Below, in pieces: positions 2 through 22,014 of a stretch of 64,000 nucleotides of DNA (its first letter is position 1; every line of letters begins with the position of its first letter). The stretch is from Candidatus Latescibacterota bacterium (GTDB lineage: Bacteria > Latescibacterota > UBA2968 > UBA8231): assembly GCA_965215195.1 (NCBI GenBank), contig CBDCDC010000002.1, positions 352,001 to 416,000 on the forward strand, written 5' to 3'. A model generated the notes under the pieces. That model made no database searches and was not told the origin of the DNA. It saw only the letters and a list, made by a program, of their open reading frames with translations. The position numbers and the translations under genes were made by a program.

Positions 2-1414
2 TACGGCGACGCCCTAGAGCGAGTGATCGATATAGTGCTCTATCCAGAGAGCGAAGACCACGTGCGCGCCATCGTGCGCCTCGCCTCCGAGCGCAGTGTT
101 TGCCTCGTGCCCTACGGCGGCGGCACCAACGTCAGCGGCGCACTGGCCCTGCCCACCGACGACGGCCGCGTCTTCGCCTCGGTCGATATGCGGCGCATGA
201 AGCGGATCGTCGAGCTCGACGAAGAAAATCTCCAAGCCTGCGTCGAAGCGGGGATTTCGGGCAAGGAGCTGGAGCGGGCACTCGCCGCCCGGGGCTATAC
301 GGCCGGCCACGACCCGGACAGCATTGAGCTTTCAACCCTCGGCGGTTGGATCGCCACCAATGCCAGCGGCATGAAAAAAAATCGCTACGGCAATATCGAA
401 GACATCGTCCTCGAAGCGACCCTCGTGACGCCGACTGGCGCGGTGGAGACCTTGCACGCCACGCCGCGCAACTCAACCGGCATCCAGCCGCGCGGGCTGC
501 TCTTTGGCTCGGAGGGCAACCTCGGCATCATCACCAAGGCCGTGCTCAAAATCCATCCCCAACCAGAAGTGCGCGAATACGGTTCGCTGGTGTTCAAGTC
601 CTTTGCCCAAGGCATGGAGTACTTGCAGGCCCTGCGCCAGACCGGGACCTTGCCGGCGAGTATCCGCCTGGTCAACAACCAAGAATTCCGCTTCGGACAG
701 GCCCTCAAGGCCGCGCCTTCTCCCTTGCAGCACCTCAAGGAAAAGGTGCAAAAGTTCGCCTTGTTGAAGCTGTTGGGGTTTGACCCGCTAAAAATGGCCG
801 CATGTACGATCGCCATGGAAGGGACGCGCGCCGAGGTCGCGCATCAGAAGCGGACGATCTTCAAGCTGGCCAAGGCCCACGGCGGCAAAAGTGCCGGTGC
901 CACCAACGGCCGGCGCGGGTACATGCTGACCTTTGGGATCGCCTATATCCGCGACTTTTTGAACCAGTTCGATTTCTTGGGCGAGACCTTTGAGACCTCT
1001 GTGCCTTGGAGCCGCATCCACGACGTGACACAGGCCGTGCAAGCAGAGCTGAGCGCCCAGTGCCGCGCCCGCAGCGTGGCCGGGCGGCCCTACCTGTCGT
1101 ACCGGGTGACGCAGACCTATCACACCGGGGTGTGCATCTACTTTACGATGGGGTTTTGCGGGCGGGGATTGGCGCGGCCCATTGAGGTCTATCACGACAT
1201 TGAGCACGCGCTGCGGCAGACGATCTTGGACCACGGCGGCTCCCTGTCCCACCACCACGGAGTGGGCAAAATCCGGCAGAGCTTTGTCCAGCACATCCAG
1301 AGCGACAACAGCATTGAGGTCCTGCGAAAGACCAAAGAAGCGCTGGATCCCCAGAATATCTTTGGCATTCAGAATGGGATTTTTGGGAGTGCGCACCGGA
1401 AGCCTAAGCAATAA
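2..1414 (+). CDS. FAD-linked oxidase, alkyldihydroxyacetonephosphate synthase (AGPS)-like; 5' end lies outside the window
   Basis: Frame is open from base 2 (YGDALERVIDIVLYP). Motifs PYGGGTNVS, GHDPDSIELSTLGGWIAT, GMKKNRYGNIEDIV, GSEGNLGIIT, RVTQTY and SLSHHHGVGK are typical of AGPS. Confidence 0.85.
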   Translation, partial: YGDALERVIDIVLYPESEDHVRAIVRLASERSVCLVPYGGGTNVSGALALPTDDGRVFASVDMRRMKRIVELDEENLQACVEAGISGKELERALAARGYTAGHDPDSIELSTLGGWIATNASGMKKNRYGNIEDIVLEATLVTPTGAVETLHATPRNSTGIQPRGLLFGSEGNLGIITKAVLKIHPQPEVREYGSLVFKSFAQGMEYLQALRQTGTLPASIRLVNNQEFRFGQALKAAPSPLQHLKEKVQKFALLKLLGFDPLKMAACTIAMEGTRAEVAHQKRTIFKLAKAHGGKSAGATNGRRGYMLTFGIAYIRDFLNQFDFLGETFETSVPWSRIHDVTQAVQAELSAQCRARSVAGRPYLSYRVTQTYHTGVCIYFTMGFCGRGLARPIEVYHDIEHALRQTILDHGGSLSHHHGVGKIRQSFVQHIQSDNSIEVLRKTKEALDPQNIFGIQNGIFGSAHRKPKQ

Positions 1415-2207
1415 GGTAGTAGTTATCACCGGCGCTTCTGCCGGCTTGGGCGCGGCGCTGGCGCTGGCGTGTGCCCAGCAGGGAGCGCGGCTGGTTATCT
1501 TGGCGCGGAATGGCAAGCGGCTGGAGGCCGTCGCCCGAGCGTGCGAGCCGTTGGGGGGCGAGGTGCTGACCGTGGTCGGGGATGTGGCCGTAGCCGAGGA
1601 TGGCAAGCGGCTGGTGGAAGCCGCGATAGAGCGCTTTGGGCGCATAGATTACTTGGTCGCCAACGCCGGCGTCAGCATGTGGACCGCGTTTGCCGCGATC
1701 GAGGATGTGGCTCTGTTTCGCACGCTGATGGAGGTAAATTACTTAGGGGCCGTGTACTGCGTGCATCCGGCGCTGCCGCATCTAAAAAAAAGCAAGGGCC
1801 TATTCGTGGCCATTTCGTCCATTCAGGGGCAGGTGGGGGTGCCGCTGCACACGGGGTACTCGGCGTCCAAACACGCGCTACAGGGGTTTTGCGACGCCCT
1901 GCGGATGGAGGTTGCCGAGAGCGGGGTGGGGGTGATGACCGTGCTGTTGCACTGGCTCGCGGGGACGGAGCTGCGGCAACGCGCATTGGGGAGGGACGGG
2001 AAGGCGTTGGGCAGTGCATCGCGCAAACACCGCGCGGGGGCGGTGATCTTAGAGGCGGCGGCGCAGGCGATTGTGCGCGGGATGCAGAAGCGACGGCAGC
2101 GGCTCTACGTGCCTAGACGGCTCAGGCTGCTGGCGGTGGTCCACGCCCTGTGGCCGCCGCTGGCCGAGTGGGTCGTCAAGGGGAAAGTGGCGCGGGAGGA
2201 AGGGTAG
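1389..2207 (+). CDS. Short-chain dehydrogenase/reductase (DHRS7B/11-beta-HSD-like subgroup)
   Basis: VITGASAGLG Rossmann motif, NAG, catalytic YSASK. Probable GTG start at 1389 overlaps the AGPS 3' end. Confidence 0.85.
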   Translation: MRTGSLSNKVVVITGASAGLGAALALACAQQGARLVILARNGKRLEAVARACEPLGGEVLTVVGDVAVAEDGKRLVEAAIERFGRIDYLVANAGVSMWTAFAAIEDVALFRTLMEVNYLGAVYCVHPALPHLKKSKGLFVAISSIQGQVGVPLHTGYSASKHALQGFCDALRMEVAESGVGVMTVLLHWLAGTELRQRALGRDGKALGSASRKHRAGAVILEAAAQAIVRGMQKRRQRLYVPRRLRLLAVVHALWPPLAEWVVKGKVAREEG

Positions 2208-2217
2208 GCCGACGGGG

Positions 2218-2513
2218 ATCAATGCGCCGTTGAGAAAGCTCTGGCGCAGACTTGTGAGCGGCCAGCTCGGCTCCTCTTTCCCGTAAGTGACCCGCGAGAA
2301 ATTGCGCGACGAATTCTTCTTCAGTTGGGCCCTCCACCGATATGGCCAGTGTGCGCACTTGCTGATTAAAGTCCTCCGGGCAGTGTGCATCGCACGGGTC
2401 CGGCAGCAGCGCCCGCGACGAGGCCAAATTGACTTCTCCCGAGCCGCGTACCGCGACATTTTGGCAATGGGGAAATCGACTTCGGCGAGACGCTTGCATT
2501 CGCGGGGGATCAC
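2218..2513 (-). pseudogene. Mosaic remnant: collinear stubs of DUF1156 methyltransferase, DUF4276 and DUF499 genes
   Basis: Minus-strand translations VIPRECKRLAEVDFPIAKMSRYAAREKSI, LASSRA and LLPDPCDAHCPEDFNQQ match the start of 8710..11688. LAISVEGPTEEEFVAQFLAGHLRERGAE matches the start of 6961..7587. WPLTSLRQSFLNGAL matches ~4675-4720. Confidence 0.9.
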
Positions 2514-3748
2514 GATGGCTTCGCTTCCTTCCACAAGCGCACGGTGAAACGGTACTCCTCCGCGATCAGGTCCGGCTCGGTGCCGTTGTGGGCCAACATG
2601 CCGGGAATGATTTTGTTCCGAATGCCCATGCCACGCGCATCCACATAGCCGTAGTCGCGCATCACGTTGACTAAGGTCTGATTGCGGGCGTAGCGCAGCC
2701 CCAATCGCATCCCGGCGGGCGTCACGGTGTTGGGCAGGCGGCCCGGACTGACGACTTCGAGGCGGTCCGAGAAGATGACCAGCATAATGTCGGTCCCCAC
2801 GATGCTGTAATCGCGGTGTACTAGGGCGTTGACCACGGCCTCGCGCACCGCACTTTCGGGAAATTCCCAGCGGTCAATCCGCCTCGCCCCTTCCAAATGG
2901 GAGGAGGGCGTCGTATTGCGCCGCACGAAATCCCACGCCTTGTCCACAAGTCCCAACTTGACAAGCTCCCCGTCCTCGGGGTCGCAGAGTGGAACCATAG
3001 GGCCTTTGAGATCCTCGTCCGCACGAGTTGCATAATCCGGCTCCGGGCCTAAGTAGCAAATAGCTCGAATGCCCGATTGTGGAAGAAACCGCTTGGGGTT
3101 CTTGCCAAACAGGAGCATTCCGTCGACGGTGGCGACCAGCTGGCCCGCTACTCGCGTCGCAAGTTCGAGGTTTTGCAGCAGCCTTTGCCACTGATCGACA
3201 TCGCTTGCAGGCGGAACGCTACCGCCCAGAACGCGGCCAAAATAATCGCGCAAATGCCGCTGGTCGAGCGAGCCGAGTGCAGTGCCGAGGACGGGCTTTA
3301 AGCCGTAGCGAAACGGTCCTCCCTGTAGGTAGAGCCGTTCCTCTTCCTCGCGGCCCGCGGCTCGCGTAGTCGTCCCGACGCGCACCTGAGTGACCCAATT
3401 TTCCCCGCGCTTGGCCTTATAAGGCTTGTCCGGCGCATCTCTCGGAAGAGATATAACGCCGACCGTCTTCCCTTCTCCCCAGTCCACGGTCTCCCAATAG
3501 GGAATCGTCGCCGGCAGGACGTGGGTGCGTGCAATTTCCATCACCCACTCCTCGACCTTGCGCGGTTCGCGGGTGAGACCGGCAACTGAGCCATTGTCCT
3601 CAACGCCGAGGAAAATGTACCCGCCCTCCAGATTGAGTAGAGCCGCAATTTCCGCGGCGAGCCGTTCCGGGCGGAGATCGGTGCGCTTGAACTCCACGCC
3701 GGAGTTCTCGCCGCTGCGGATCAGTTCGACCAAATCGGATTTGTTCAT
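2510..3748 (-). CDS. AlbA_2 (Schlafen-like) domain + RecG-C/HATPase_c_4 ATP-binding protein
   Basis: N-terminal GENSGVEFK and ALLNLEGGYIFLGVEDNG; C-terminal AVREAVVNALVHRDYS, SPGRLPN, RNQTL and GMGI. Confidence 0.85.
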   Translation of the reverse strand: MNKSDLVELIRSGENSGVEFKRTDLRPERLAAEIAALLNLEGGYIFLGVEDNGSVAGLTREPRKVEEWVMEIARTHVLPATIPYWETVDWGEGKTVGVISLPRDAPDKPYKAKRGENWVTQVRVGTTTRAAGREEEERLYLQGGPFRYGLKPVLGTALGSLDQRHLRDYFGRVLGGSVPPASDVDQWQRLLQNLELATRVAGQLVATVDGMLLFGKNPKRFLPQSGIRAICYLGPEPDYATRADEDLKGPMVPLCDPEDGELVKLGLVDKAWDFVRRNTTPSSHLEGARRIDRWEFPESAVREAVVNALVHRDYSIVGTDIMLVIFSDRLEVVSPGRLPNTVTPAGMRLGLRYARNQTLVNVMRDYGYVDARGMGIRNKIIPGMLAHNGTEPDLIAEEYRFTVRLWKEAKPS

Positions 3749-3829
3749 GGCTTTATCTTTTTGCGGTTGTTGTACTGTGTCGCAGGCTCGCGAATTTCCA
3801 TCGGCGGCTTGAGCGTGTCAACGCTCAGG
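3745..3829 (-). pseudogene. 3' stub of an SNF2 helicase allele
   Basis: Encodes LSVDTLKPPMEIRE...KP*, against LSVDTLKQPMEIRE...RP* at the end of 17402..20854. Its stop overlaps the AlbA_2 ATG. Confidence 0.85.
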
Positions 3830-3835
3830 TCATAT

Positions 3836-4083
3836 TCACCACGCAAAAAGTGCGCCCACTTCCATCGTCAACTCTCGGCCCGGATCGCCGTCCTCGCGCA
3901 CCACGAGTTGACCGTCGGTGTATCCGACATCGGCGACGCCGGAAAAATCGGAGGGAATCTGCATGAGAAAGTTGGCGTAGGTAAAAACCTGGGTCTCGTC
4001 GGCGTCGATATATTGAAAGAGCGAGCGGCCGAAAATCCGGCCTTTTTCCAACAACACCGGGCTAGGTTGGGGTAAGCCCGTAG
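3836..4083 (-). repeat. Diverged duplicate of the 3' end of gene 20844..21953
   Basis: About 250 bp align with 20844-21091 (GLPQPSPVLLEKGRIFGRSLFQYIDADETQ...MEVGALFAW* vs GLHQPSPVLLEKGRIFGRTLFHYIDADETQ...MEVGELFAW*). Confidence 0.92.
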
Positions 4084-4094
4084 GCCGATGCGTA

Positions 4095-4160
4095 CCACGC
4101 CCTGCGGCCGCCACTGGCTGAGTGGATCGTCAAAGGGAAGGTCGCACGGGAGGAGGGGGC
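4095..4160 (+). repeat. Diverged duplicate of the SDR 3' end (2141-2210)
   Basis: ccacgccctgcggccgccactggctgagtggatcgtcaaagggaaggtcgcacgggaggaggg vs ccacgccctgtggccgccgctggccgagtgggtcgtcaaggggaaagtggcgcgggaggaaggg. Changes are mostly at third codon positions. Confidence 0.88.
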
Positions 4161-6917
4161 CTACGAACGTTCGACGCGGAGCTGGTCGCCCAGTTCGAGA
4201 TCGTCGAGAATCTGCTGCAATTCAGTTTCCATGTTGTGGGCAAACTGCGAGCGGACGCTCACAGTACATTCAATACCGACGTTAAGCTCTTCCCCGGAGC
4301 GCAGCTTGGGCAGCATCTTGGTTCCCAGCCGGTTCCAGACTTCGGGAGGTACGGTGCCGGTAAGCCGCAGCGTTGTCTTTTGATTGTCCTCGCTCGGTGT
4401 GGGCTCTGGCTGGGGTGCTAACTCTGGGCTCGGCGCGGGTTCCGGTGGCGTCTGTGGCGAATGTTTAGCTGCGGCTTTGAGTTCTCTAACTTTGGCTTTG
4501 GTCACCAAGAAGACATTCTCCTCAAACGCCACTTCCTCGGCTGCGACCGACTCTTTATACCACAGCCGATTAAAGCCGCCATCGTCCTTGGCACCCGAGG
4601 CTAGACCAAACTCTCCCTTCGCCACGAACTCAACGACCTTCTGACGCAGGACCGCATCGGGATTGAGCAGCCGCGTCAATGCGCCGTTCAGAAAGCTCTG
4701 GCGCAGACTCGTGAGCGGCCACGCGCCGGAGTCTTTGAACGCCGCGGGCCAGTGGCGGTCGATGTAGCCGGCCCCCACGTTCTCGTTGAGCAGGGCCTCG
4801 GCCTTCAAAGCACTAATGATCCGTCCGCAGAGGGTTTCGCTTGCGCTGGCGTGGCCGGCCCCGAGGTCAATGACCTTGAGCCGATGCTCTTCCTGATTGT
4901 CCGCAAGTGCCACGAACCGATAGCCGGCCCACACTTCGTCCTTAGCCGCTTCCTCCGCGTCCCGAACATGGGTCTGAATTTCGGCGCGGTCGGCGCGGTC
5001 GTACTCTGAGCCGAGGACGCCCTCGGTTACTTCTTGGGCCACGCGCTTCCAAGCGAGCCACAACTCCACCTTATCGCGCAGTTCTCGTCCTAATTTCCTC
5101 GCACACCAGACCAGTGAACCCGGGTACAGCCGTGGCGCAGTGCCTCGTTCCTGCGTCCAATGGCCAATGCGCTCGACCACTTGGTTGCCGTTTATCCATT
5201 CCTCATCGGGGTCGAGGACGATCAGAGTGAGGCGCGGCGAATCTTGGACCGTGGCGCTGTCTTGCGGGAAGAACGTTATCGGCAGGGTCGCACCGCGTTT
5301 GAATTCCTCCTCGACCAGCTTGCGGATCGCCGGCTTGATCTCTGTAGTCTCGTCGAGCGAAGCCCGTCGGTCACTGACGACCTTGCGCAGTGTCGCTTGA
5401 TGGTAGATGCGATAGCCGTCCGTGCCGACCTTGCGGATAAAGAACCCCGACCCTTCGAGAGCTGTCGCTGCGCTGTCAATAGTCGTAGTCTCGACCTCGG
5501 GCTCGCCGAGCGCAAAGCGCAATTCCGGCAGATGGGCCACCTTTTCTACCTGTCCGCCGGAGGACTCGAATAGGATGGCCGTGCCCACGCGGCGGTGGAT
5601 GTCGCGCAGTGCTCCCGTGGCATCCGCGTCGAGAGGTCTGGCATGTGCCATCGGCCCGGCGAGGTCGGCGTCAATTGCCACATCGAGCCGCGACTCGCCC
5701 AACTGGCCCAAGACCACAGCGCGAAACTCGGGCACGTCCAACGGCGCCGACCCCAGCGTAATCAGCGGCTCGGTTCGCGCCTTTGTAAACTGCTCGCGCA
5801 CGGCCCAGGAAATCCATTGCGCCAGCATGGCCAGCGCACCTCGGGTTTGCTGAAACTGAGAAAGCGCACGCCACTTGCGCTGAAAGACCGAAAGAGTTGC
5901 CGGATGAAAGGGATAGCACACCTCGAATCGGCCGCGCAAAAATTCCCTTGCCTTGGCCTCCGTCGTCGCGGTATCGACTGCTAACCACTCGGCGGGCAAG
6001 CGAGCAGTGCGTTCAAAGCACCAGTCCGCGTAGGTCTTGGCGACGCGCTTGCGAGTGCGCTCGTTGCCGAGGTCCTCAAACAGCCGCCGGCGCACCACCT
6101 CGCTGATTTCGGATTCGTCATTGGCAATTAGATCGCGGGCAACGCGACGTACCACCTTGGTGATCCGGTCCTGCCACTGCTGATCCCAATCGGTCATTTC
6201 GACTTGGCTGCGCGGCAGGCTAATGAGTGCGGCAGCCTGAGTAGTGCCCGTGACGGCGACGGTCAGGTTTTGGAGGAAGGCGTGGAAGGGCTCGGCCATG
6301 GGGCGATGGCGATTGACAAAGTTCAGGACTTCATCGAACAACAGCAGCACGGGCGCATCCGCGGCAGCGAATACGTTGGCCAGTGCCTCGGTTCCCGGCG
6401 GCGTGGTCCGTGCGGCAGCACCGAGTGCCGCGACGCCCTTATCGCCCGCTAGTTGGTGCGCCAGATCGAGCCAAGGCGTTTCCCGGCCCTCCGCAGGGTC
6501 CCAAGCATTGCCCACGAAGACGCCGACTCGGGCAGGCGGAGCTTCTGCCATGCCGGCCTCGTTCAGGAGGTCTGCCACGCCGGGGAACTTGGCGGCATCC
6601 GCGCCGGCGTTGGCGATATGGTACAGCGAAGCCAGCGTATGCGTCTTGCCGCCACCAAATTGGGTGACGAGTGTGAGAACCGGAGCTGTGTTCTCGGTCT
6701 TGCCGGAGAGACGCCGGAGGACCATGCCAGCGTGTTCCTTTAGGGCGCGGGTGAAGCAGGTGCGCGAAAAAAATTGCGCTGGATCGCGGTAATCCACGGG
6801 GGCGGTTTGGGCTACGATCTGCTCAAGGGCAATGGCGAACTCGTCCGGGCTGAACGAGCGGCCTTCGCGCACTTCTTTGCGGAGCGTTACGGTTTTGTAC
6901 CAAGGGTCAAGGGCCAT
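4161..6917 (-). CDS. DUF499 AAA+ ATPase (BrxC-related)
   Basis: MALDPWYKTVTLRKEVREG start, Walker A QFGGGKTH, Walker B LLFDE, YPFHP and FQQTRG motifs. Confidence 0.88.
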   Translation of the reverse strand: MALDPWYKTVTLRKEVREGRSFSPDEFAIALEQIVAQTAPVDYRDPAQFFSRTCFTRALKEHAGMVLRRLSGKTENTAPVLTLVTQFGGGKTHTLASLYHIANAGADAAKFPGVADLLNEAGMAEAPPARVGVFVGNAWDPAEGRETPWLDLAHQLAGDKGVAALGAAARTTPPGTEALANVFAAADAPVLLLFDEVLNFVNRHRPMAEPFHAFLQNLTVAVTGTTQAAALISLPRSQVEMTDWDQQWQDRITKVVRRVARDLIANDESEISEVVRRRLFEDLGNERTRKRVAKTYADWCFERTARLPAEWLAVDTATTEAKAREFLRGRFEVCYPFHPATLSVFQRKWRALSQFQQTRGALAMLAQWISWAVREQFTKARTEPLITLGSAPLDVPEFRAVVLGQLGESRLDVAIDADLAGPMAHARPLDADATGALRDIHRRVGTAILFESSGGQVEKVAHLPELRFALGEPEVETTTIDSAATALEGSGFFIRKVGTDGYRIYHQATLRKVVSDRRASLDETTEIKPAIRKLVEEEFKRGATLPITFFPQDSATVQDSPRLTLIVLDPDEEWINGNQVVERIGHWTQERGTAPRLYPGSLVWCARKLGRELRDKVELWLAWKRVAQEVTEGVLGSEYDRADRAEIQTHVRDAEEAAKDEVWAGYRFVALADNQEEHRLKVIDLGAGHASASETLCGRIISALKAEALLNENVGAGYIDRHWPAAFKDSGAWPLTSLRQSFLNGALTRLLNPDAVLRQKVVEFVAKGEFGLASGAKDDGGFNRLWYKESVAAEEVAFEENVFLVTKAKVRELKAAAKHSPQTPPEPAPSPELAPQPEPTPSEDNQKTTLRLTGTVPPEVWNRLGTKMLPKLRSGEELNVGIECTVSVRSQFAHNMETELQQILDDLELGDQLRVERS

Positions 6918-6960
6918 TCTGTCTCTCTCTTTGATCGGGTCTCTGCGCGGTGGTTCAATC

Positions 6961-7587
6961 TCAACTCCCCAGCGACTCCAAGCTCGTTACCCAGCCGTTG
7001 AACCGAGGGCATTCATTGCGAATCTTGGCCAAGCCAATCTCCACTGCTAGAAGGGGGGCGTCAACTTTCTTATCGTACCGGGGTATAATCTCCTTGATCC
7101 GTTTGCTCGGAGCCGTGTCCTTGTTGTCGTTAATGTCCTCGGGCGTCTGGAACTGTGAACGGATGTTTTGCAGGGCCTCCACCGATCCGTCCGGTGCGCT
7201 AACCAGGCCCGCAAAAACGCTTACATCCGAAAACAACAGCCCCTCGAACTCATGTCGTTGGACATATGGGAACACTCTTTTTGGATGCCATAGACCGCCG
7301 AGTTTCTGGCGAAGGTCTTCCTCCAACTCATCGCTTGTTCTGCCTTCTTTGCGACGAAACCCATAGAAGTCAACGAGCGATGTCACCGCATCAAAGGAAC
7401 GGAGTAAATGGGTCATTTCCGACACGAGTCGCTCCACCGAAACATTTCCGCCGTCAGATCTGCCGCGGGCGCGGCCAAACAGAATCGGTATCGGTTCGAC
7501 TCCTCTTTCTCTTAAGTGAGCCGCGAGAAAATGTTTGACAAATTCCTCTTCGGTTGGGCCTTCTACCGATATGGCCAGTCGGATCAC
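6961..7587 (-). CDS. DUF4276 family protein (TOPRIM-like putative nuclease)
   Basis: VEGPTEEEFV, LVDFYG, HEFEGLLFSD, PEDIND..TAPSKRI and IRNECPRF motifs. GTG start overlaps the upstream ATPase stop. Confidence 0.85.
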   Translation of the reverse strand: MIRLAISVEGPTEEEFVKHFLAAHLRERGVEPIPILFGRARGRSDGGNVSVERLVSEMTHLLRSFDAVTSLVDFYGFRRKEGRTSDELEEDLRQKLGGLWHPKRVFPYVQRHEFEGLLFSDVSVFAGLVSAPDGSVEALQNIRSQFQTPEDINDNKDTAPSKRIKEIIPRYDKKVDAPLLAVEIGLAKIRNECPRFNGWVTSLESLGS

Positions 7588-8699: not shown

Positions 8700-8709
8700 C
8701 GCGTTCCTT

Positions 8710-11688
8710 TCACCTCGGCACCGCCAACAGCATGGCGTCGAGCAGGCGTTTTTCGTTGCAGCCTTGAGGGTAGAGTGCCGATAGCGCGTTGGCAAGGCGC
8801 AGGAAGTCGGGGCCGCGATCTTGCTCGGCGTTGATCAGCGTCCGCAGTGCGTTGGCGTGGCCGCTGGACTGGAGCAGCATGGCGGTGTGGACGCGGTCGA
8901 GGGTGGTGCCGTCGGAAGTTGCGGCGAGGTGTTCGTCGGAGGTTTCGCCGTATCGCGGGCGCGGCTCCCGCACGAGAGCGGGTGCGCCGTCCTGCCAGTC
9001 GGGGAAGAGCGTCTGCTGCGCGTTGGTGCCCGGGTCGCTTTCGATGTAGGTGGCAGCGGCCGTAGCGCCCTCCTCGCCGAAGAGCTTTTTGGCCCGCTCG
9101 GCTACGGGTAGTAGGCGCACGACGCCCTTTGCTTGGCCGATGATGCGGTCGGTCCAAGTACCGAGGTCAATGCCCATGGGCTGGGCGAAGCGGCGCACCA
9201 CGTCGAAGGGGAGCGCAAATCCCGTGGCCGCGACCTTGGCGACGGCTTCTTCGTCGGCCTCGTCGTCTCGTTCCCCTGCGTTCGCAAGGGCAGGACTCTG
9301 ATTTTCTGCAACAAGGGTTGTGCTCTGGAGCGTCCACAGGAAGAGTGCGGTCAGGCGGGCGTCCTCTTCCAACGCGCCGGAAAGGCCGTTGTGCGCTCGC
9401 GCCTCGGCCGTGCCGAGTACCTGTTGCAGGGCGGCGCGGCCGACGACCTCCCAGACTTTCTCCAGATAATCGGGCAGGCCGATTATATTGCCCTCGGCGG
9501 TTTCGACAGCGCGGTAACGGCTGAAAATTTCGAGCGCCGGGCCGATGCAGGCGAAGACCAGATCGGCACCGCGGATGCCTTCGCCCTGCAAACGCTCGAT
9601 CCAGTCGGCGACGCGGACCGGCAGTTCGCGGAGGACATCGGCCCAGTCGCCGATGGGGGCGTCCTCGGGACGGGGGCGGCAGATGAGGTGGATGCTAGTG
9701 GCGAGTGCGGCGGAGTCGCGGGCGCGCAGGCGGGTCTCGCTCTCCGTGGCGATTGGCCAAGAGCCGGTGATAGTCCAGCCGCCGCGAATCATGCCGGAGA
9801 GTAGCGCCTCCCAGCCCTCTGTCGTCTTGTGAGCGAAGACGACGGAGCCGACACCTTCTTCGCTTAGAATCCGGCGTCCCTCGGCGAAGGCTTTCGCCAT
9901 TGTTTCCTCGAACCACTCTCGGTCCTTGGGTCGGCCGTCGACCTGCTTGGTCTCGTCCTGTACGGCCTCGGCTGTCTTGGGCGAGAGCGGGTTGTCTGGA
10001 TCGAACGGGTCGCGCAGCAACGGGTTATCAGGTAGCGTACGCTTGAGCCAGACTAGGAAAAAGTCGGATAGATCGGAATAGGGTATTGCGTCGTAGTAGG
10101 GTGGATCGGTGAACCAGATGCCGGCGGACTGGTCGGGAAGGGGGTGGTCGGTGGCGTTGGCGGGCTGGACTTGGCCTCCCGCCACGACTCGTACAGCGTC
10201 TATGACCTTACATGCTGCGGTGATCCCCGACAGAAAAACTCCCCGCGCATTGCTTTTTGGCGCTGATTCACAGAAATCCCACACTACAGGAATGGCTTGG
10301 CGTGCAAATAGATTCACAGGATTTTCAGCACCGCTTTCCCATCTGGCAAGTGAATTATTCCCATCCGACATTCTGCCTAAGAGCAATGCGATTAGGGTCT
10401 GTTGAATGCTTGGCGTAAGCGTTACCGTTGATCGCCCCAACCCCACCATCGCCACCTTCTGCCGCGCCGTAAACAAATCGCCCCACTGCATCATCCCGTA
10501 CCGCTGCACACGGAAGCCCAACGTTCCAATCGGTGGCAACAGCTCGTCCGGCACCGGGCAAAGCCCCTGTTTCCCGCTCCTTTCCCATTCCTCCAGAACC
10601 TGCGCCACCCGTTCCTGAGCCTTTCGCACCGCTGCGTAGTCCGCGTCGTTGGGCAGCCGATAGTGCCGCCCTGTTTCATTAGGGCGCAACGTCACCACCG
10701 CCGTCATTCGCGCCCCGCCCATCCGCCGCCCGTCCGCGTCGAAAATCACATCCGCCCCGCCCCGCTCGGCCGCAAGCTGCGCCCGCACCCGCTCCGGCGG
10801 CAGGACCGCGCCGCAGCACAAACAAGTCGCCCGCGCCCGCGCCACCGTGCCGCCGCGCACCTCTCTATCCGCCTGCGGCTCAAACACCTCAAACTCGACG
10901 CTCGGTGGCTCCCCCGCGCAGCACTCGACGCGATGCCGCAACGCCCGCTTGCGCTTGGCCTTCTTGCACAGATAAAACGACCGCATCAGCGGAATCTCCG
11001 CGCCGCAGTTGGGCGCTTCGCAACGCACTGTCCGCGCCCACAAATAGGCAATTGGCGTGGCCCCGTCCGGGTCCTTGGGATACAGAGTGGCCAACTCCTG
11101 CTCGGCCTGCCGCTTAATCTCGCCGCCGACCCGGCGCAGTTCCTCGGCCAACCCCGGCCCGTGCCGCGGAATATCCTCCAGCATCACCTTGAGAATCAGG
11201 CACGCCACCGGATTCAGATCACTGGCGAACGCCTCGCAGCCCAGCCGTAGCGCCTCCAGCGGAATCGAGCCTCCGCCCGCAAACGGATCCACCACGAGCG
11301 GCGGCTCCTCGCCATGCGCCGCCTTCACCAAAGCCCGGCTCACGTCGAGGTGGGTGCGATCCGCAGCATTTTTCCAGTTGGCGAAGTTGGCAATGAACGA
11401 CAGCAACCCCTGTCGCAGTTCCGCGTCATTCGCCGGCGGCTGACGCACCTCGCGCAGAATCTCGCGCGCTTGCTGCTTAAACTCCTCCGGGCAGTGCGGG
11501 TCGCACGGGTCCGGCAGCAGCAACGCCAGCAACACGGCCCGCGACGAGGCCAAAGGCCGCCGCGCCCACCACAGGTGCAGCGTACTCGGATGCCCGTGCC
11601 GAATCGACTTCTCCCGCGCCGCGTGCGTGGACACTTGGGCGATGGGGAAATCGACTTCGGCGAGACGCTTGCATTCGCGGGGGATCAC
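8710..11688 (-). CDS. DUF1156 adenine-specific DNA methyltransferase
   Basis: LHLWWARRPLA (DUF1156), DPFAGGGSIP SAM-binding motif, Cys-rich Zn finger, catalytic TDPPYY. True start is probably the GTG at 11688. Confidence 0.9.
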   Translation of the reverse strand: MIPRECKRLAEVDFPIAQVSTHAAREKSIRHGHPSTLHLWWARRPLASSRAVLLALLLPDPCDPHCPEEFKQQAREILREVRQPPANDAELRQGLLSFIANFANWKNAADRTHLDVSRALVKAAHGEEPPLVVDPFAGGGSIPLEALRLGCEAFASDLNPVACLILKVMLEDIPRHGPGLAEELRRVGGEIKRQAEQELATLYPKDPDGATPIAYLWARTVRCEAPNCGAEIPLMRSFYLCKKAKRKRALRHRVECCAGEPPSVEFEVFEPQADREVRGGTVARARATCLCCGAVLPPERVRAQLAAERGGADVIFDADGRRMGGARMTAVVTLRPNETGRHYRLPNDADYAAVRKAQERVAQVLEEWERSGKQGLCPVPDELLPPIGTLGFRVQRYGMMQWGDLFTARQKVAMVGLGRSTVTLTPSIQQTLIALLLGRMSDGNNSLARWESGAENPVNLFARQAIPVVWDFCESAPKSNARGVFLSGITAACKVIDAVRVVAGGQVQPANATDHPLPDQSAGIWFTDPPYYDAIPYSDLSDFFLVWLKRTLPDNPLLRDPFDPDNPLSPKTAEAVQDETKQVDGRPKDREWFEETMAKAFAEGRRILSEEGVGSVVFAHKTTEGWEALLSGMIRGGWTITGSWPIATESETRLRARDSAALATSIHLICRPRPEDAPIGDWADVLRELPVRVADWIERLQGEGIRGADLVFACIGPALEIFSRYRAVETAEGNIIGLPDYLEKVWEVVGRAALQQVLGTAEARAHNGLSGALEEDARLTALFLWTLQSTTLVAENQSPALANAGERDDEADEEAVAKVAATGFALPFDVVRRFAQPMGIDLGTWTDRIIGQAKGVVRLLPVAERAKKLFGEEGATAAATYIESDPGTNAQQTLFPDWQDGAPALVREPRPRYGETSDEHLAATSDGTTLDRVHTAMLLQSSGHANALRTLINAEQDRGPDFLRLANALSALYPQGCNEKRLLDAMLLAVPR

Positions 11689-14142: not shown

Positions 14143-15563
14143 GAGGTCATCCTTCTAACGGTGATGGTGGCAGCCAACTCCTCAAAGAGGGCGCGATTAA
14201 CGAATGCCGACGCGGCGTTAAGGCGTACCGCAGCTTCGTCGAATCGACCACCGTCTAGGAGCAGCGAGATGACCCTAACAACCTCGTCCACGCTTTGGGG
14301 TGGGTCGAGAAGTTCGATCAATTCCTCCTGTCGTCCCAAACCGTCCAACGCCCGGATCTTGATCTGGCGTTTTTCATGTGAGTGGGACGTGTTAATCTCA
14401 GCGAGAAGTTCCAATGCTCTCTCGTATTGTTCGGTGGCTACCGCCGTCATCGCGTTATCGAGTCGTTGAGTGGGGGTAGGTGGTTTAGGACGTGAAGGCG
14501 AAAGCGGGAGGTTTAGCTTGATGAAGGTTTTACCGCCGAAGTCGTCCCGATGGGAGCCGGTGAAGACGCCCCCTGATGACATCGCTCGTACATGAACGGT
14601 GATTGAGTTACTGTTCGGATCGATGACGACGATGTTGAATTGGCGTCGCTCTCCCGTGGGGAGTTCATGGTCGCCCACTGCAATTGAGCCGGCACCTACG
14701 ACCGCCATTGAGGTCAGGTTCGGCAGACGAAGTTCAAACGGCGCTGCACCAGGATAATGCTGATGTCCGTGTAGCCCGACGCTGAATCCGAAATCGATAA
14801 GTTTGTGGATGACACGTTGGTCCATATAATCGTTTGCTCGTGGTCCGCCGACAACGCTATGGTGCCACACGGCGACGGCAACCGGGGCATTCGAGCCCGC
14901 AAGTAGTTCCCGCGATGAGGCCAGCGATACCGAGTCGATCTCTCCCACGTGGCAAAAGCAGTCGTTCCCGTGCCAAGAGGCGAATCCGACAATAACGAGC
15001 CCGAGAGACGGATACTCGACAAAAACGAGGTCATCATCTCTATGCGACAATGGACTTGGGTCTAACCCTGCATAGAAGTCTGCTTGAAACTGTCGGAAGT
15101 GTTTGAAGCGAGATTCATACAGATTACTGTCACTGATCTCGTAGGATTTCTGCTCCTTCCAGTTCCAGCGCACGTTTGAACTGGCCTCAAAGGCCTTGCT
15201 AGCGATCCCTTCTGGACAGGTTGCGAGAGGCTCCATCGCGTTTCGGGCGCGACCCCAGTCAACATCGTGGTTTCCAGGGATGATGACGACGCGCGATCGA
15301 TCAGAATCAACAAACTCGGCTGCCAGATATCGTAAGAAATCGCAGGCTTCAGAGTATTGGGCTGCGATCTCGGAGTCGGGATCGGTAGTGCCGATACTTA
15401 CGCCCTGAACTAGGTCGCCGCTCACCACGACTAGGTCTGGACTCGGAATCCCCTCTCCGCTCCACCGCGTTGCATCGCTGGTGATTGCCGCGAGAAGCTC
15501 ATCGTTGCTTAAACGAGGCCCCGACGTTCGGTGTAGGTCAGAGATGTGAAGGAGAGTAGGCAT
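14139..15563 (-). CDS. Calcineurin-like metallophosphoesterase with a helical/TPR-like C-terminus
   Basis: HISDLH, SGDLV, PGNHD, WHH and LHGHQH motifs. ATGA overlap with the downstream Hsp90-like gene. Confidence 0.85.
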   Translation of the reverse strand: MPTLLHISDLHRTSGPRLSNDELLAAITSDATRWSGEGIPSPDLVVVSGDLVQGVSIGTTDPDSEIAAQYSEACDFLRYLAAEFVDSDRSRVVIIPGNHDVDWGRARNAMEPLATCPEGIASKAFEASSNVRWNWKEQKSYEISDSNLYESRFKHFRQFQADFYAGLDPSPLSHRDDDLVFVEYPSLGLVIVGFASWHGNDCFCHVGEIDSVSLASSRELLAGSNAPVAVAVWHHSVVGGPRANDYMDQRVIHKLIDFGFSVGLHGHQHYPGAAPFELRLPNLTSMAVVGAGSIAVGDHELPTGERRQFNIVVIDPNSNSITVHVRAMSSGGVFTGSHRDDFGGKTFIKLNLPLSPSRPKPPTPTQRLDNAMTAVATEQYERALELLAEINTSHSHEKRQIKIRALDGLGRQEELIELLDPPQSVDEVVRVISLLLDGGRFDEAAVRLNAASAFVNRALFEELAATITVRRMTS

Positions 15564-15617
15564 TAATTACTCCTCGCAGGGATTCCGCGTGTAAGCAGAT
15601 GATCAATCCGGTTTTGG

Positions 15618-15678
15618 TCTCTACGATGCGCTGGATGATGTCGTCCGACGTTTGTTGGTCCAGCATCCTCTTTTTCAC
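15618..15678 (-). pseudogene. MNT 5' stub (third copy)
   Basis: VKKRMLDQQTSDDIIQRIVE matches the starts of both intact MNTs and has the same ctaggagagaagcc RBS region as MNT copy 2. Confidence 0.8.
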
Positions 15679-15715
15679 GGCTTCTCTCCTAGTGCTTGCT
15701 CAGCGCCTCCCGCGT

Positions 15716-15804
15716 GCGGTCGATTTCTGCCGCGCTACGTACCGCGACATTTGGGCGATGGGAGAATCGACTTCGGCGAGACGCTTGCAGGCGCGGGGGA
15801 TCAC
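15716..15804 (-). pseudogene. DUF1156 5' stub
   Basis: VIPRACKRLAEVDSPIAQMSRYVARQKS vs intact VIPRECKRLAEVDFPIAQVSTHAAREKS. Confidence 0.85.
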
Positions 15805-15917
15805 AGTATGCGTTCCTCAGCCCAGCGGATGACGGCTTCGGCGGTCTCTATCGCTTCAGCGTACTCCTGTTCGGAAACCGGGCTGGCGGTGAAAGGATAG
15901 CGTTCAGGCAGTTTCAT
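15801..15917 (-). pseudogene. Internally deleted HEPN gene
   Basis: MKLPE-RYPFTASPVSEQEYAEAIETAEAVIRWAEERIL*: the start and end of HEPN joined in frame at a CGCT microhomology. Confidence 0.85.
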
Positions 15918-16230
15918 ACACCACCCGTCCTTCCCGCAAAGCGGGCTTGACGACCAGCGCGTGGCTGTTCTTGTAACGCTCTACATATTCAGGGGAGACC
16001 ACAATTGCATCCACAGCCGCCCCGGCACCGCGCATGTTCCGGTATATTCGCTTCGTGACGTCGGTCGCGTTTTCTCCTGCCTTGACGATGAGCAGATCGA
16101 CGTCGCTGTGGGGCCCCATTTCGCCGCGGGCGGCAGAGCCGAACAGGATGATCTTTTCCGGCTGAGCGACCTCTACGATACGCCGGATGATGTCGTCCAA
16201 CGTTTGTTGGTCCAGCATCGTCTTTTTCAT
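15904..16230 (-). CDS. Minimal nucleotidyltransferase (MNT) antitoxin, copy 2
   Basis: ILFGSAARGEMGPHSDVDLLIV. ATG at 16230 follows an aggagag RBS. Confidence 0.88.
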   Translation of the reverse strand: MKKTMLDQQTLDDIIRRIVEVAQPEKIILFGSAARGEMGPHSDVDLLIVKAGENATDVTKRIYRNMRGAGAAVDAIVVSPEYVERYKNSHALVVKPALREGRVVYETA

Positions 16231-16267
16231 GGCTTCTCTCCTAGGGTTGCTCCGCGTTTGTGGTATG

Positions 16268-16335
16268 CGGTCGATTTCTGCCGCCCCCGCAGTTTTATCG
16301 ACTGCGGCGAGACGCTGGCATTCGCGGGGGATCAC
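16268..16335 (-). pseudogene. DUF1156 5' stub
   Basis: VIPRECQRLAAVD directly follows the HEPN stop with a GTGA overlap, the same junction as at 11688. Confidence 0.75.
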
Positions 16336-16724
16336 AGGTGCTCCTCGACCCAGCGAAGGACGGCTTCGGCGGTCTCTACCGCTTCAGCGTACTCCTGTTC
16401 GGAAACGGGCCTGCTGGGATTGGGATAGCGCGTGGTTATCGCGTAACGCGTAAGTCTCGAAGCACGGCGAACCGCGTCCGGAATGCACTCTTCACTTCCT
16501 GCAAGGATTGCCAGTAAATGGGCTAAATCATGCACGTACGGAAACTTGATGTCATGCGAGATCATCGCGGCTTTGATGGCCTTCTCCGCGGCCTGCTGGG
16601 CCGCGAAACACAAGTCTTCGAGGTAGGCGTTGGGGACGCGATTCTTCGCGATTGCCAGACTGCTTCTGGCGCGGTTCAACCACTCCCGCGGATCGTCGGG
16701 CGGGAAGCGCTCAGTCAGTTTCAT
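16332..16724 (-). CDS. HEPN domain protein (toxin of the MNT-HEPN pair)
   Basis: LCFAAQQAAEKAIKA, YVHDLAHL and YAITTRYP motifs. Confidence 0.88.
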   Translation of the reverse strand: MKLTERFPPDDPREWLNRARSSLAIAKNRVPNAYLEDLCFAAQQAAEKAIKAAMISHDIKFPYVHDLAHLLAILAGSEECIPDAVRRASRLTRYAITTRYPNPSRPVSEQEYAEAVETAEAVLRWVEEHL

Positions 16725-17037
16725 ACACGACCCTCCCCTCGCGCAGTGCCGGCTTGATGACTAGCGCGTGGCTGTTCTTGTAACGCTCTACGTCACTGGG
16801 AGTCACCACGATCGCGTCAACCGCGGAGCCGACGCCATACAGCTTGTCATAAATCTGCCCCATGAGGTCAAGCGCGTCCGCCCCTTCCTTGACGACGAGC
16901 AGATCGACGTCGCTGTGGGGTCCCATTTCGCCGCGGGCGGCCGACCCGAACAGGATGATTTTCTCCGGTTGAGCAACCTCTACGATGCGCCCGATGATGT
17001 CGTCCAATGTTTGTTGGTCCAGCACCCTCTTTTTCAT
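16711..17037 (-). CDS. Minimal nucleotidyltransferase (MNT) antitoxin, copy 1
   Basis: ILFGSAARGEMGPHSDVDLLVV; overlaps the HEPN start. Confidence 0.88.
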   Translation of the reverse strand: MKKRVLDQQTLDDIIGRIVEVAQPEKIILFGSAARGEMGPHSDVDLLVVKEGADALDLMGQIYDKLYGVGSAVDAIVVTPSDVERYKNSHALVIKPALREGRVVYETD

Positions 17038-17328: not shown

Positions 17329-17405
17329 CCCACCGTGATTTCGACGATGCCACGTTCAGTGCCATCGCGTTTGAGCTTGTCGGCTTTGAGTATTGACTTT
17401 TTCAT
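17325..17405 (-). pseudogene. 26-aa remnant ORF, probably an internally deleted gene
   Basis: MKKSILKADKLKRDGTERGIVEITVG*, joined by ATGA overlaps to both the helicase and the 69-aa gene. Confidence 0.45.
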
Positions 17406-20400
17406 GGTCTGCTCTTCGCTCCGTAGTGCCCTTCGTCTTCCCGAATTTCCATCGGCTGCTTGAGCGTGTCAACGCTCAGATAGTAGTGGGCGACCTTGGT
17501 GACCTCGTGCCACGGGAAACGGGCTGGGTCTTTAATCGGCTCTTGAAGCTCCGGGGTGCTGGCGCAGTTGGTCACCACGTAGAGCCAGTAACAGTCGCGG
17601 CGATCTTCGGCGATGCGGCGCTCGTTGGGCGTCAGCAGAATGCTGCCGGAAGCGGCGGCGAGACCTTTTATCTCGATCAGACGCAACTCGCCGGACTCTA
17701 AATCGCGGCTAGTTATATCGTACCCAAGATTCTTCTCGTGAACATCATCGACTTGACGACCTTGGGCGGTCTCGTACTCCATGACCACCTGCATCGCCGT
17801 CATCTCGGTTTCGGGATGTGGACGCAGGTGCCGGACATCGAGGGTGTCGCGTTCGGGATGGGGCAGGATTAAGACGCTGGCGAGCCGCTCGACTCCCTGC
17901 AAGGTCAGCGCCCGCTGCCGCTCGAACTCAGTGCGCCGACGGTCGCGGCGCGCCATCACCTCGGCATGGCGGACTTCGGCCTGCGCCAAGCGGCCCTCGG
18001 CACCAGTTGCGTTGTTATCCCTCTCCTCGGCGGCGCGACCAATCTCCTCATCGGCCCGCTGTATAACCTCCGTCAAGGACAGTTCGACGTGTTTGGCAAT
18101 GCGCTCGACTTCGGCCAGACGCTCGGCGCGAACCTCGTTGATAAAAGGCACCAAGGCGTTTTCGTTGAGCCACGCAGTCGCTTCTGGGAGAGCGGCTACC
18201 GGAGGCAGATCGCCTGGAGCGGTGGCGGGGCTGAGATTGCCAAGGACATCCGGCTCGCGGAGACAGAAAGAGCCATCATCCGTCAATTCCACTGTGAACA
18301 ACCGTTCGTGAATCACCTGCCCGAGGCCATCTACGACCCGCGCCCGGTAGAAGTCGAGACGCGCCGGTACTGTGTGCGCTAGGGAATGGAAACAGGCCCC
18401 CTTGGCAAAGGCATCTTGGCCGAGATGGAGGCTATGCCGGCGCAGGGCCTCGAATAGGGGATGCCCGGGAGTCACCCATTCGAGGTTGTGCTCCTCGGCT
18501 GTGTTGCGGTCCGTTGATAGCCGCGGATAGCGCATCGCCAGTTCCGGGAGTTTCCAGTCTGGATCGCGCTCGTATTCCTTCAACTTGGACGGCGTCCGCC
18601 CCGGCTCGAACGTATGCGCCAAGTGGCCCATCGGCTTCAGAGTTAGGGCCGCATGTTGGGCGCACTCCGCCATGAACCGCGCAATAGTCTCGGGCACGAC
18701 GCGCCGCTCTTGGGCCTTGGCTCGGTGCTCGACGAGCATGTCGAGGTTGAGCTTCTTGGAGGCCAAACCTTCCAGTGCCGTCTGGCAGATGGACCGGAAG
18801 TGGCCTTCATCCACGTCCTGCAAAAGCCGCTCTTCGAGGTCAGTGTGCCCCAACTTTCCCGCGTAGTAGTCCCGCAGCACGCGCTCCACGTGGGCGGACG
18901 GCAAGACTTCGCCGACTACGTTGAACACTGCGTCGTCGTCGAGGGCGTCGCGGATCTCTTGGAGCTTGTCCAACAACCGCTGGAGCACCCGCCCCTCAAT
19001 GGTGTTGGTGGCGACGAAGTTGAAGATCAGGCAATCGCGCCGCTGGCCGTAGCGGTGGATGCGGCCCATGCGCTGCTCGAGCCGGTTCGGGTTCCAGGGG
19101 ATGTCGTAGTTGAAGAGGATGTGGCAGCACTGAAGGTTGATGCCTTCGCCGGCTGCTTCGGTGGCCACCAAGACTTGGATGGCACCTTTGCGAAACTGCT
19201 GTTCGGTGTGGAGACGGCTGCCCGGTTCGTCGCGTGAGCCGGGCTTCATGCCGCCGTGGATGCAGCCGACGCGGAAGCCCCAGGCTTGCAAGCGTTCCAT
19301 CAGGTGGTCGAGAGTGTCCTTGAACTCGGTGAAAAGGAGCAGTCGCTGATCGGGCCGGTCGAAGAACCCCTCCTCCTGCATTATGTTGCGAAGATGTGCG
19401 AGTTTTGCCTCGCGGCCCGCGTCTTCGACGACCTTGGCCTTTTCAGCGAGCTGGAGCAGTTCGCCGATCTCTGCGCGGATCTGGTCGGCGTTGCCCGCCA
19501 GTGTGATGGCCTCCAGCAGCTCCTCCAAGTGCTCGCGCTCGGCGTCTTCCAATTCCTCCAGCTCTTCGAGGTCGGGAAGGTCCGGCGGTGCGGTCCGCAC
19601 TAGCTCCTCGGCGCGCTTGAGGCCATCCTTTAGACGCCGGGCGCGGTTTTCGAGGGACCGCCGCATGGCGTAGGTGCTGGAGGCGAGGCGTCGTTGGTAC
19701 AGCGACATCAGAAAACCGACCGCCCGAGCACGCGGGTCGTCGCCCTGTGCCGCAGCGCGTGCGCTCTGCCGTTTCACAAACCGCGTGACCTTTTGATAAA
19801 GCTCGAACTCAGCGCCCTGAATAGCGAAATCCGCGGTGCGCGGGATGCGCTTGGTAAAGACCGGCTTTGCAGTCCACGTTCCGTCCGTCTGGCGCTCCGG
19901 GAAGTACACCATCGCCTCCTTGGTGCGCCGCAGGTAAAAAGGCGCTCGCCTTCGTTCCATAGCTTCGCGGATCGATTTCACGTCCGCGTAGGCATCGCGG
20001 TCGAGCAATTGCAGAAACAGGGTGAAGTTCTGCGGGTCGCCCTTGTGGGGCGTGGCGGTCAGTAGCAGCACGTGATCGGCGCTGTCGCGCAGCAATTCTC
20101 CGAGCCGGTAGCGCTGGCTCTTGTGGGTCTCGTCGCGCGCCGACATGCGGTGCGCCTCATCGACAATCACCAGATCCCAATGCACCTGTTGCAATCCGGG
20201 CAAGATCTCGGTGCGCTTGGCGAGGTCGAGCGAGGTAATGATCTGCTTTTGCTCCAGCCACTGGTTGACCCCGAACTGATCGCGGATGTCGCCGCCCTTC
20301 ATCACTAGGAACTTATCGTCGAACTTTTCCTTGAGTTCGCGCTGCCACTGGAACGTCAGGTTCGCGGGGCAGACGACGAGCACCCGTTCGATGAGACCCC

Positions 20401-21953: not shown

Positions 21954-22014
21954 TATAGGTACTCCTTCTGTGAAGTGAGGGGATGGCAAAAGAGACGCAA
22001 CAACGTACTAGAAA

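Follow-up and report, generated by a model that had tools for sequence, protein, structure and literature searches.

The stretch of DNA analyzed here (the window) comprises 64,000 nucleotides of a Candidatus Latescibacterota genome (contig CBDCDC010000002.1 of GenBank assembly GCA_965215195.1, positions 352,001 to 416,000 of the forward strand). Its first 22 kb hold an Hma defense island flanked by two convergent host genes, an SDR oxidoreductase gene on the plus strand and a DUF4432-like gene on the minus strand, and all genes between the two lie on the minus strand. DUF4432 is the sole Pfam match of the right flank gene, at a score below the cut-off (26.4 vs 32.5 bits). According to PADLOC, the large island (4161-20854) holds all three Hma components, HmaA, HmaB and HmaC, with HEC-01A and HEC-01B as neighbors on the same strand, nested in the Hma genes. 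Between the large island and the SDR gene lies a much smaller, degenerate copy (2208-4094) in which one cargo gene, here called AlbA2, is intact. The small copy and its relation to the large island are the subject of this analysis.

Two independent computations, a repeat search and a blastn comparison of 2100-4200 with 4085-22100, resolve the small copy (2141-4083) into at least seven pieces that are colinear with the island at 4095-21091, on the same strand and 85-96% identical to it (blastn E-values of 4e-13 to 4e-96; Table 1). In the remaining window (22101-64000), blastn found no match for these pieces. A preliminary description of this DNA had already recognized island parts in matching order and orientation, an intact AlbA_2 ATP-binding gene, three DUF1156 fragments and about 300 bp in place of about 7.5 kb of core genes. 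All of this was borne out: both Pfam domains of AlbA2 score above their cut-offs, the three fragments together make up the first 225 nt of HmaB, less two small deletions, and 295 bp (2219-2513) replace the 7.5 kb of 4161-11688. Where the description spoke of the last codons of the helicase, the tail (aa 1126-1138) is indeed present, but the first six HmaA codons are kept as well. In all, the small allele retains, between 2208 and 3846, 19 codons of HmaA, about 54 of HmaB and 15 of HmaC, too little to count as an Hma system, and its losses amount to four large and two small deletions.

Table 1. Features of the locus, in window coordinates. Counterparts are the matching positions in the other copy, with nucleotide identity; aa, amino acids; ORF, open reading frame; Sd and Nd, synonymous and non-synonymous differences.
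Feature	Position	Strand	Counterpart and identity	Evidence or remark
SDR oxidoreductase, full-length, left host flank	1410..2207	+		Pfam adh_short E=1e-47; NCBIfam SDR family oxidoreductase 284.8 bits
SDR 3' end, duplicated flank end, copy 1	2141-2204		4095-4158, 85.9%	
HmaC/DUF499 fragment, aa 733-747	2219..2264	-	4676-4721, 95.7%	2 differences, both synonymous
HEC-01B/DUF4276 fragment, aa 14-40	2267..2350	-	7496-7579, 84.5%	
HmaB/DUF1156 5' stub	2353..2513	-		first 225 nt less 15-nt and 49-nt deletions
HmaB piece 1	2353-2410		11464-11521, 89.7%	
HmaB piece 2	2400-2428		11526-11554, 86%	
HmaB piece 3	2423-2513		11598-11688, 89.0%	
AlbA2, intact cargo gene, 412 aa	2510..3748	-		SLFN_AlbA_2 + HATPase_c_4 (Pfam)
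33-codon ORF	3745..3846	-		HmaA codons 1-6 + HmaA aa 1126-1138 + diverged tail, in frame
HmaA tail piece, aa 1126-1138	3788-3828		17439-17479, 95.1%	
DUF4432-like flank stub, last 82 codons including stop	3835..4083	-	20843-21091, 90.4%	Sd 14.5, Nd 9.5
Tandem junction	4084..4094			between DUF4432 stub and SDR-end stub
SDR 3'-end stub, 21 codons, contiguous with intact island	4095..4158	+	2141-2204, 85.9%	
HmaC, AAA+ ATPase (DUF499), intact	4161..6917	-		PADLOC HmaC E=2.4e-95
HEC-01B/DUF4276	6961-7617	-		PADLOC HEC-01B 2.7e-63
HEC-01A, AAA_21/ABC ATPase	7584-8795	-		PADLOC HEC-01A 6e-115
HmaB, DUF1156 adenine methylase, intact	8710..11688	-		PADLOC HmaB 5.3e-114
GHKL/HSP90-like ATPase cargo	11836-14142	-		Pfam; NCBIfam matches weak
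Metallophosphoesterase cargo	14139-15563	-		Pfam; NCBIfam matches weak
MNT (nucleotidyltransferase)/HEPN cassettes, repeated scars	15538..17037 (cassette genes 15904-17037)	-		repeat search, Pfam, blastn
HmaA, SNF2 helicase, NOV_C end, intact	17402..20854	-		PADLOC HmaA 1.2e-171
DUF4432-like right flank gene, full-length; last 249 nt = duplicated end, copy 2	20844..21989	-		Pfam, blastn, relatives' loci

The differences between the stubs and their intact counterparts fall mainly at synonymous sites, as the preliminary description had noticed for the copied SDR end (seven of the nine differences at third codon positions; seven synonymous, two not) and as holds for the stubs in general. When seven codon-aligned stubs (206 codons) were pooled and compared with the intact copies, 66 differences were found, 15, 11 and 40 of them at codon positions 1, 2 and 3. 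This corresponds to 39 synonymous and 27 non-synonymous differences over 149 synonymous and 469 non-synonymous sites, a dS of 0.32 and a dN/dS of 0.19; for an in-place duplicate with one copy non-functional since birth, a dN/dS of about 0.5 or more is expected. Polarization of the differences, using up to 18 relatives, assigned 26 synonymous and 17 non-synonymous changes to the stub lineages and 12 and 6 to the intact copies, whereas under neutrality about three quarters should be non-synonymous. Mostly synonymous differences speak for alleles that diverged as working genes in separate lineages, and the small copy is, judging by this pattern, a diverged second allele rather than a fresh in-place duplicate. 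A recent tandem duplication is likewise not what 85-96% identity and this dN/dS describe.

Both stubs that border the junction are the more derived copies: the SDR stub carries 8 derived changes versus 1 in the gene-attached copy, and the DUF4432 stub 14 versus 8 in the intact copy. Moreover, identity to all 16 relatives compared reaches only 79-87.5% for the SDR stub, versus 91-97% for the gene-attached SDR end. For these reasons, a donor origin would fit both stubs. The adjoining 3' end of HmaC (4201-4500) is also distant from relatives (85% at best, median 82%, versus 88-93% for the rest of HmaC), and together with the SDR stub it may have been acquired by local recombination with an unsampled lineage. 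Neither sliding identity nor the polarized changes showed a clear switch that would mark a crossover point or the resident allele.

The same locus was cut out from 18 other species of the genus (referred to by G numbers), and in 14 of them Hma genes or their remnants lie between the same SDR and DUF4432 flanks. Three of the others (G044, G042 and G021) have about 160-210 bp between the flanks, and in G011 some 4 kb of other sequence separates them. The preliminary description had predicted that a relative would carry an intact helicase-AlbA_2-DUF1156-DUF4276-DUF499 allele at this site, and G022 does: between the same flanks it has a full HmaA, an AlbA2 orthologue (93% aa identity), MNT, HEPN, HmaB, HEC-01A, DUF4276 and a full HmaC. 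G012, G002 and G046 carry 94% AlbA2 orthologues at the same locus, with HmaA broken or missing. Across the 18 loci, the island core genes of the window find 88-94% nucleotide identity and the flanks 90-94%, and the cargo region 11701-15900 has no match.

Decay of the island in these relatives does not depend on a second copy. At least seven of the 18 loci (G002, G010, G012, G018, G020, G045 and G046) are decayed although single, with large parts of the core lost in G002, G018, G020, G045, G046 and G010. The small copy may thus have collapsed without any redundancy, and the earlier proposal that its core was deleted after integration because it was redundant is not established. We considered a deletion boundary in common with G018, which keeps HmaC aa 723-764 by the SDR gene, overlapping the aa 733-747 of the window; since the borders of the two remnants differ, the overlap does not establish that the deletion was inherited from a common ancestor. 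We also considered the in-frame HmaA remnant as a selected feature, but the corresponding deletions of G012 and G002 and the remnant of G010 are out of frame, so that the in-frame state here may be chance. The G010 remnant, which resembles window positions 3745-3846 and lies at about 37540-37700 of the assembled G010 locus, consists only of HmaA codons 1-24 and an HmaA-tail piece beside the DUF4432 gene, and the SDR side of this locus lies elsewhere in G010.

The two alleles meet at 4084-4094, where, as described earlier, copies of both flank gene ends are joined: the DUF4432 stub meets the 64-nt SDR-end stub over a filler of 6-11 nt that matches neither flank gene of this genome, with DUF4432 homology extending to 4088 in some relatives. 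No microhomology is evident at this junction. The junction was not found among 30 other genomes of the genus, and an exact 25-mer over it had no match in metagenome_contigs and genome_contigs, from which records of this very genome are possibly excluded. The preliminary description had named a chimeric assembly as a danger, and contigs from public sequencing runs, which bridge the junctions without a single difference, argue against it. Four runs of one study (X18-X21) contain 84-97% of the sampled words, and the runs X1-X17 contain small shares (0.06-0.09); the run contigs were built independently of the genome assembly, although the underlying data may be the same. All four runs yielded a 341-nt contig that covers 2156-2496 with no differences. 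Two X18 contigs, one over 3324-3864 and one of 2255 nt over 3959-6213, which crosses the junction, are equally free of differences, and their depth of about 5 equals that of their neighbors.

A locus in which the end of one unit is joined to the start of the next, with the flank genes complete on the outside and present as stubs on the inside, is expected from a tandem duplication and also from the entry of a second allele by a homologous crossover plus a non-homologous joint. The dN/dS of 0.19, the intact allele of G022 and the bridging contigs speak for the second allele, as the preliminary description had proposed. We favor, with a probability of roughly 0.62, a model in which 2208-4094 is a degenerate second Hma allele that diverged elsewhere and was joined head-to-tail to the other by recombinase-free recombination. 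An Hma island has occupied the intergenic site between the SDR and DUF4432 genes through much of the genus. Two of its alleles would have diverged as working genes in separate lineages, to a dS of about 0.3, and would then have been brought together head to tail without a site-specific recombinase. For the joining we infer a route with homology on at least one side and one non-homologous joint at 4084-4094, which would have duplicated the ends of both flank genes (249 nt of the DUF4432-like gene, 64 nt of the SDR gene). The entering DNA would best be a circularized fragment, closed on itself at 4084-4094, that integrated by a single crossover; alternatively, it would have been linear, with homology at a single anchor. 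The small allele would have been stripped of its Hma core by four large and two small deletions, before or after the joining, and the AlbA_2/HATPase_c_4 gene is kept by purifying selection.

The idea, put forward from the start, that no integrase was involved agrees with a Pfam scan of 17 proteins across 1-24111, which found no integrase or transposase domain. Nor does the island look integrase-borne at its borders, where the repeats are diverged host gene ends of 64 and 249 nt, not short identical att sites. The accompanying idea that the allele came in by flank homology stands in part: homology on at least one side fits, but a non-homologous joint, with its filler, is needed too.

Several observations weigh against the entry of a diverged allele. 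Homology-facilitated illegitimate recombination and the Campbell-type insertion of a circularized fragment are known from natural transformation, and 3-8 nt of microhomology are typical at the non-homologous joint of the former; a joint with filler and no microhomology is unlike the textbook case. The survival of several short colinear fragments between large deletions is an odd pattern, and a single complex template-switching event explains the surviving fragments equally well. A search for the donor with the left end of the island (4085-4700) gave a best match of 87% among 168 genomes of the phylum, so that none was identified. Among the contigs listed, the joint at 4084-4094 is bridged in one of the four runs (X18), and the bridging runs may be the genome's own assembly data. 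Finally, in a tree of the 249-nt DUF4432 segment, the stub and the intact copy of the same genome are sisters (support 87/85), so that the donor would have to be an unsampled close or sister lineage, unless later gene conversion partially homogenized the two. This sister relationship is what an in-place origin would produce, that is, one illegitimate sister-strand exchange that duplicated the entire island in tandem, along with bits of both flanks, followed by long divergence and by decay of one copy, and a unit end joined to a unit start at 4084-4094 is exactly the topology of such an event. We nevertheless consider it improbable. The flank stubs would never have been functional after the exchange, yet their synonymous to non-synonymous differences are 7:2 for SDR and 14.5:9.5 for DUF4432, and the pooled dN/dS is far from the value of such a duplicate. 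In addition, the stub branch of the DUF4432 tree (0.055) is no longer than that of the intact copy (0.071), and a direct repeat of 17 kb would have had to outlast 10-14% divergence.

More weight, although well short of an even chance, goes to a scenario with the roles reversed, in which the small allele is the old, already decayed resident and the intact island with its different cargo was added later, re-arming the locus. Decayed single alleles are common in relatives, as described above, and the small allele joins a genus-typical SDR end (97% identical to G018, G022, G043 and G044), with a 10-nt post-stop spacer beside it that is common to G018, G009, G045 and G021. The SDR stub attached to the large island, on the other hand, reaches at most 87.5% identity to relatives, and the HmaC 3' end next to it 85%. 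The SDR side of the small allele thus looks native and 4095-4500 looks foreign, which keeps the intact island as newcomer in play. It is set back by the DUF4432 stub, which lies on the small allele and is also the more derived copy, in line with donor origin, by the rest of the large island's core, which is as close to relatives as the flanks are, and by the deletion boundaries of the small allele, which are common to no relative. An assembly artefact, with two strain haplotypes of one locus set in tandem in the metagenome-assembled genome (MAG), appears very improbable to us. The runs do hold several related strains, with many split positions, and some X18-X21 contigs join an SDR end straight to an HmaC end, with other letters between (2207 to 4195, 2211 to 4192). 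We considered these contigs as a deletion variant of this genome and read them instead, weakly, as the single allele of another strain, the short side being 21-24 letters. However, the junction runs from gene interior to gene interior with filler, leaving no common word for an assembler to cross, the independent X18 contig over 3959-6213 shows no difference at its neighbors' depth, and the genome is assembled in 2 contigs.

If the small allele is indeed what a second Hma allele has left behind, AlbA2 is the part that survived intact. The protein has a Schlafen-like architecture, with an N-terminal SLFN_AlbA_2 domain (47.9 bits, cut-off 25.3) and a C-terminal HATPase_c_4 domain (67.8 bits, cut-off 26). 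It matched no NCBIfam model, and its PADLOC matches were only to the AlbA_2 parts of pAgo-associated proteins. The dN/dS of 0.11-0.14 against the orthologues of G012, G002 and G022 indicates that the gene is retained by purifying selection. The start of AlbA2 overlaps the stop of the HmaA remnant (ATGA, 3748-3745); at the other end of the gene, the stop codon shares bases with the GTG start of the HmaB stub (GTGA, 2513-2510). Both overlaps agree with the preliminary description. All genes from HmaA of the large island down to AlbA2 are co-oriented, and a weak consensus scan found no minus-strand terminator-like site between 4161 and 3748. Co-orientation, the lack of such a site and the intact ATGA coupling make it plausible that AlbA2 is expressed by read-through from the upstream island and by coupling to the 33-codon HmaA remnant. 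A scan of 2000-4700 for sigma-70-like promoter sites found none against 0.6 expected by chance and is uninformative. By genomic context, AlbA2 is a candidate defense or regulatory module.

Homologues of AlbA2 (56-94% aa identity) were examined at 78 loci (L numbers), in records titled as MAGs of Latescibacterota and of many other phyla. A full HmaA directly upstream and a full HmaB downstream were found at 9 of the 78, in several phyla and with HmaA 72-81% identical; another 10 have partial or decayed Hma genes, and 59 have no close Hma gene within 10 kb. The AlbA_2/HATPase_c_4 gene thus recurs embedded in Hma and is also found on its own. Whole HmaA-AlbA2-HmaB(-HmaC) arrangements, with the HmaA identity just given at the amino acid level, are seen in L079, L081, L083, L085, L115, L122, L127 and L129, and the MAGs with whole systems carry titles such as Dehalococcoidia, Acidobacteria, Nitrospirales and Alphaproteobacteria. 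This distribution points to movement of whole HmaA-AlbA2-HmaB systems between phyla, in many cases apparently within similar host-associated communities. Two of the partial loci, L124 and L106, look collapsed like the small allele of the window. In L124 (about 6971-13000) and L106 (about 9200-11440), from records titled Bryobacterales and Opitutales MAGs, what flanks the AlbA2 homologue is no more than an HmaA-tail stub, some pieces of HmaB and one of HmaC; in L106, the homologue itself is broken into two frames.

Scars of a similar kind, at smaller scale, occur within the large island. Copies of the HmaB start, 13-32 codons long, are present at 15714-15804 and 16297-16335, 3' fragments of HEPN genes lie at 15814-15902 and 11695-11783, and a 5' fragment of MNT (15619-15692) is fused upstream of the phosphoesterase gene. 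Relatives have comparable stubs, namely extra HmaB starts in G004, G009, G012, G022 and G046, extra HmaB ends in G008, G012, G022, G045 and G046, extra HmaC starts in G043 and G045, and an extra HmaA tail in G045, and across the genus these stubs of core-gene ends sit at the borders of cargo cassettes. This pattern is read from anatomy in kin that are not independent of each other. As the core-end stubs look like smaller versions of the flank-stub scar, they suggest that cargo may enter Hma by imprecise recombination between alleles, in one integrase-free process. A wider scheme, which we put forward only tentatively and regard as rather doubtful, would hold for these sponge-associated bacteria. 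In them, the conserved ends of Hma genes and flank genes would serve as homology arms of an integrase-free cassette system, candidate arms being the HmaA 3' tail, the HmaB 5' start and 3' end, and the HmaC 5' start. Imprecise, one-ended recombination with DNA of other lineages would add cargo or a whole allele beside the existing content and leave a duplicated stub each time, which would be the mechanism of embedding, and AlbA_2-type cargo would outlive the decaying core as a module of its own.

The components of the locus are of known kinds, namely Hma, HEC-01, MNT/HEPN and AlbA_2 proteins; new here are the cassettes bounded by stubs and the tandem allele, with scars at the flank ends. A 2024 preprint (Payne et al., 2024, bioRxiv 10.1101/2024.01.29.577857) described Hma systems that carry embedded genes, so that the large island belongs to a known kind. 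In that preprint, embedded genes are rarely linked to mobility (3.1% mobility-associated proteins), the route by which embedding arises is left open, and no defense activity is reported from the HEC-01 assays; its main text has no occurrence of "AlbA", "Schlafen" or "recombination", although its supplementary tables may list the cargo family among the 434 embedded families. As in the systems outlined there, HmaA, HmaB and HmaC of the window lie on one strand, with nested cargo and with HEC-01, an ABC ATPase paired with a DUF4276/TOPRIM-like protein, between HmaB and HmaC. Different from them are the five intact HmaA-HmaB cargo genes with additional gene fragments, the core-end stubs and a whole second, decayed allele. 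The preprint's curated filter, as given in that text, admits hma genes on one strand, present once each, without pseudogenes and with at most 3 embedded genes per gap. The large island does not pass it, although its Hma genes are intact and on one strand, because of the five intact cargo genes between HmaA and HmaB and the extra HmaB-start stubs.

The setting between conserved genes resembles the core defense hotspot cDHS1 of Pseudomonas aeruginosa (Johnson et al., 2023, PMC10250203) and hotspot 37 of E. coli (Hochhauser et al., 2023, PMC10121019), which, as these papers outline, are fixed sites bounded by conserved genes, highly variable in defense content and often without a recognizable mobile element. 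Both papers propose that such hotspots exchange their content through flank homology, in the form of scarless homologous replacement; in the window, by contrast, there is a scar, and the incoming allele seems to have been added in tandem instead of replacing the resident one. In homology-facilitated illegitimate recombination, as in Campbell-type insertion, a homologous crossover plus a non-homologous joint likewise adds foreign DNA next to resident DNA without an integrase, but no microhomology is seen here, and the organism is uncultured, with no known route of DNA uptake. The losses of core genes are like those of ordinary defense-island erosion, with multiple deletions as in G002, G018, G020, G045, G046, L124 and L106; the difference is that here one gene was selectively kept and the remnant lies in tandem to an intact paralogous island. 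Nested defense genes in Hma, BREX, DISARM and type I restriction-modification systems and hotspots without mobile-element genes are documented, and the available texts leave open how the genes enter (bioRxiv 10.1101/2024.01.29.577857; PMC10250203). The locus described here preserves the scars, as diverged duplicates of both flank-gene ends at a junction with filler. If these scars and those at the cassette borders stem from one process, they would define a testable, integrase-free route to build and stack defense cargo, with a simple sequence signature that can be searched for in other genomes.

Some minor observations concern the large island and the rest of the genome. HmaB likely starts with the GTG at 11688, where the alignments of relatives begin. 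The cargo zone between HmaA and HmaB has a mosaic, repetitive make-up and contains two MNT genes that are 78% alike, one HEPN gene and two HEPN 3' fragments, and an HmaB-start stub supplies the GTG of a 143-aa open reading frame (15904-16335). The metallophosphoesterase has a weak match to the NCBIfam model "DS9_1 anti-phage phosphoesterase" (41.7 bits, with a cut-off of 420 bits). In L085 (a MAG), a fragment of the GHKL ATPase C-terminus (about 11927-12250, 88% aa identity) lies directly upstream of HmaB, beside an HmaA-tail stub. In the small allele, 48 nt past the SDR stop, a weak terminator-like hairpin followed by a T-rich stretch is formed at the joint between the HmaC and DUF4276 fragments (2255-2269, plus strand); the interval 2000-4700 has three terminator-like sites against 2.7 expected, no excess over shuffled sequence. 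Elsewhere in the same genome there are 15 matches to the AlbA2 protein, the nearest paralogue being 43% identical (C2:2317216-2318436), two more long DUF1156 methylase genes (C1:709763-712030 and C2:1801294-1803711, 39-49% aa identity) and two short fragments of DUF1156 N-termini (C1:751382-751879 and C2:41808-41987).

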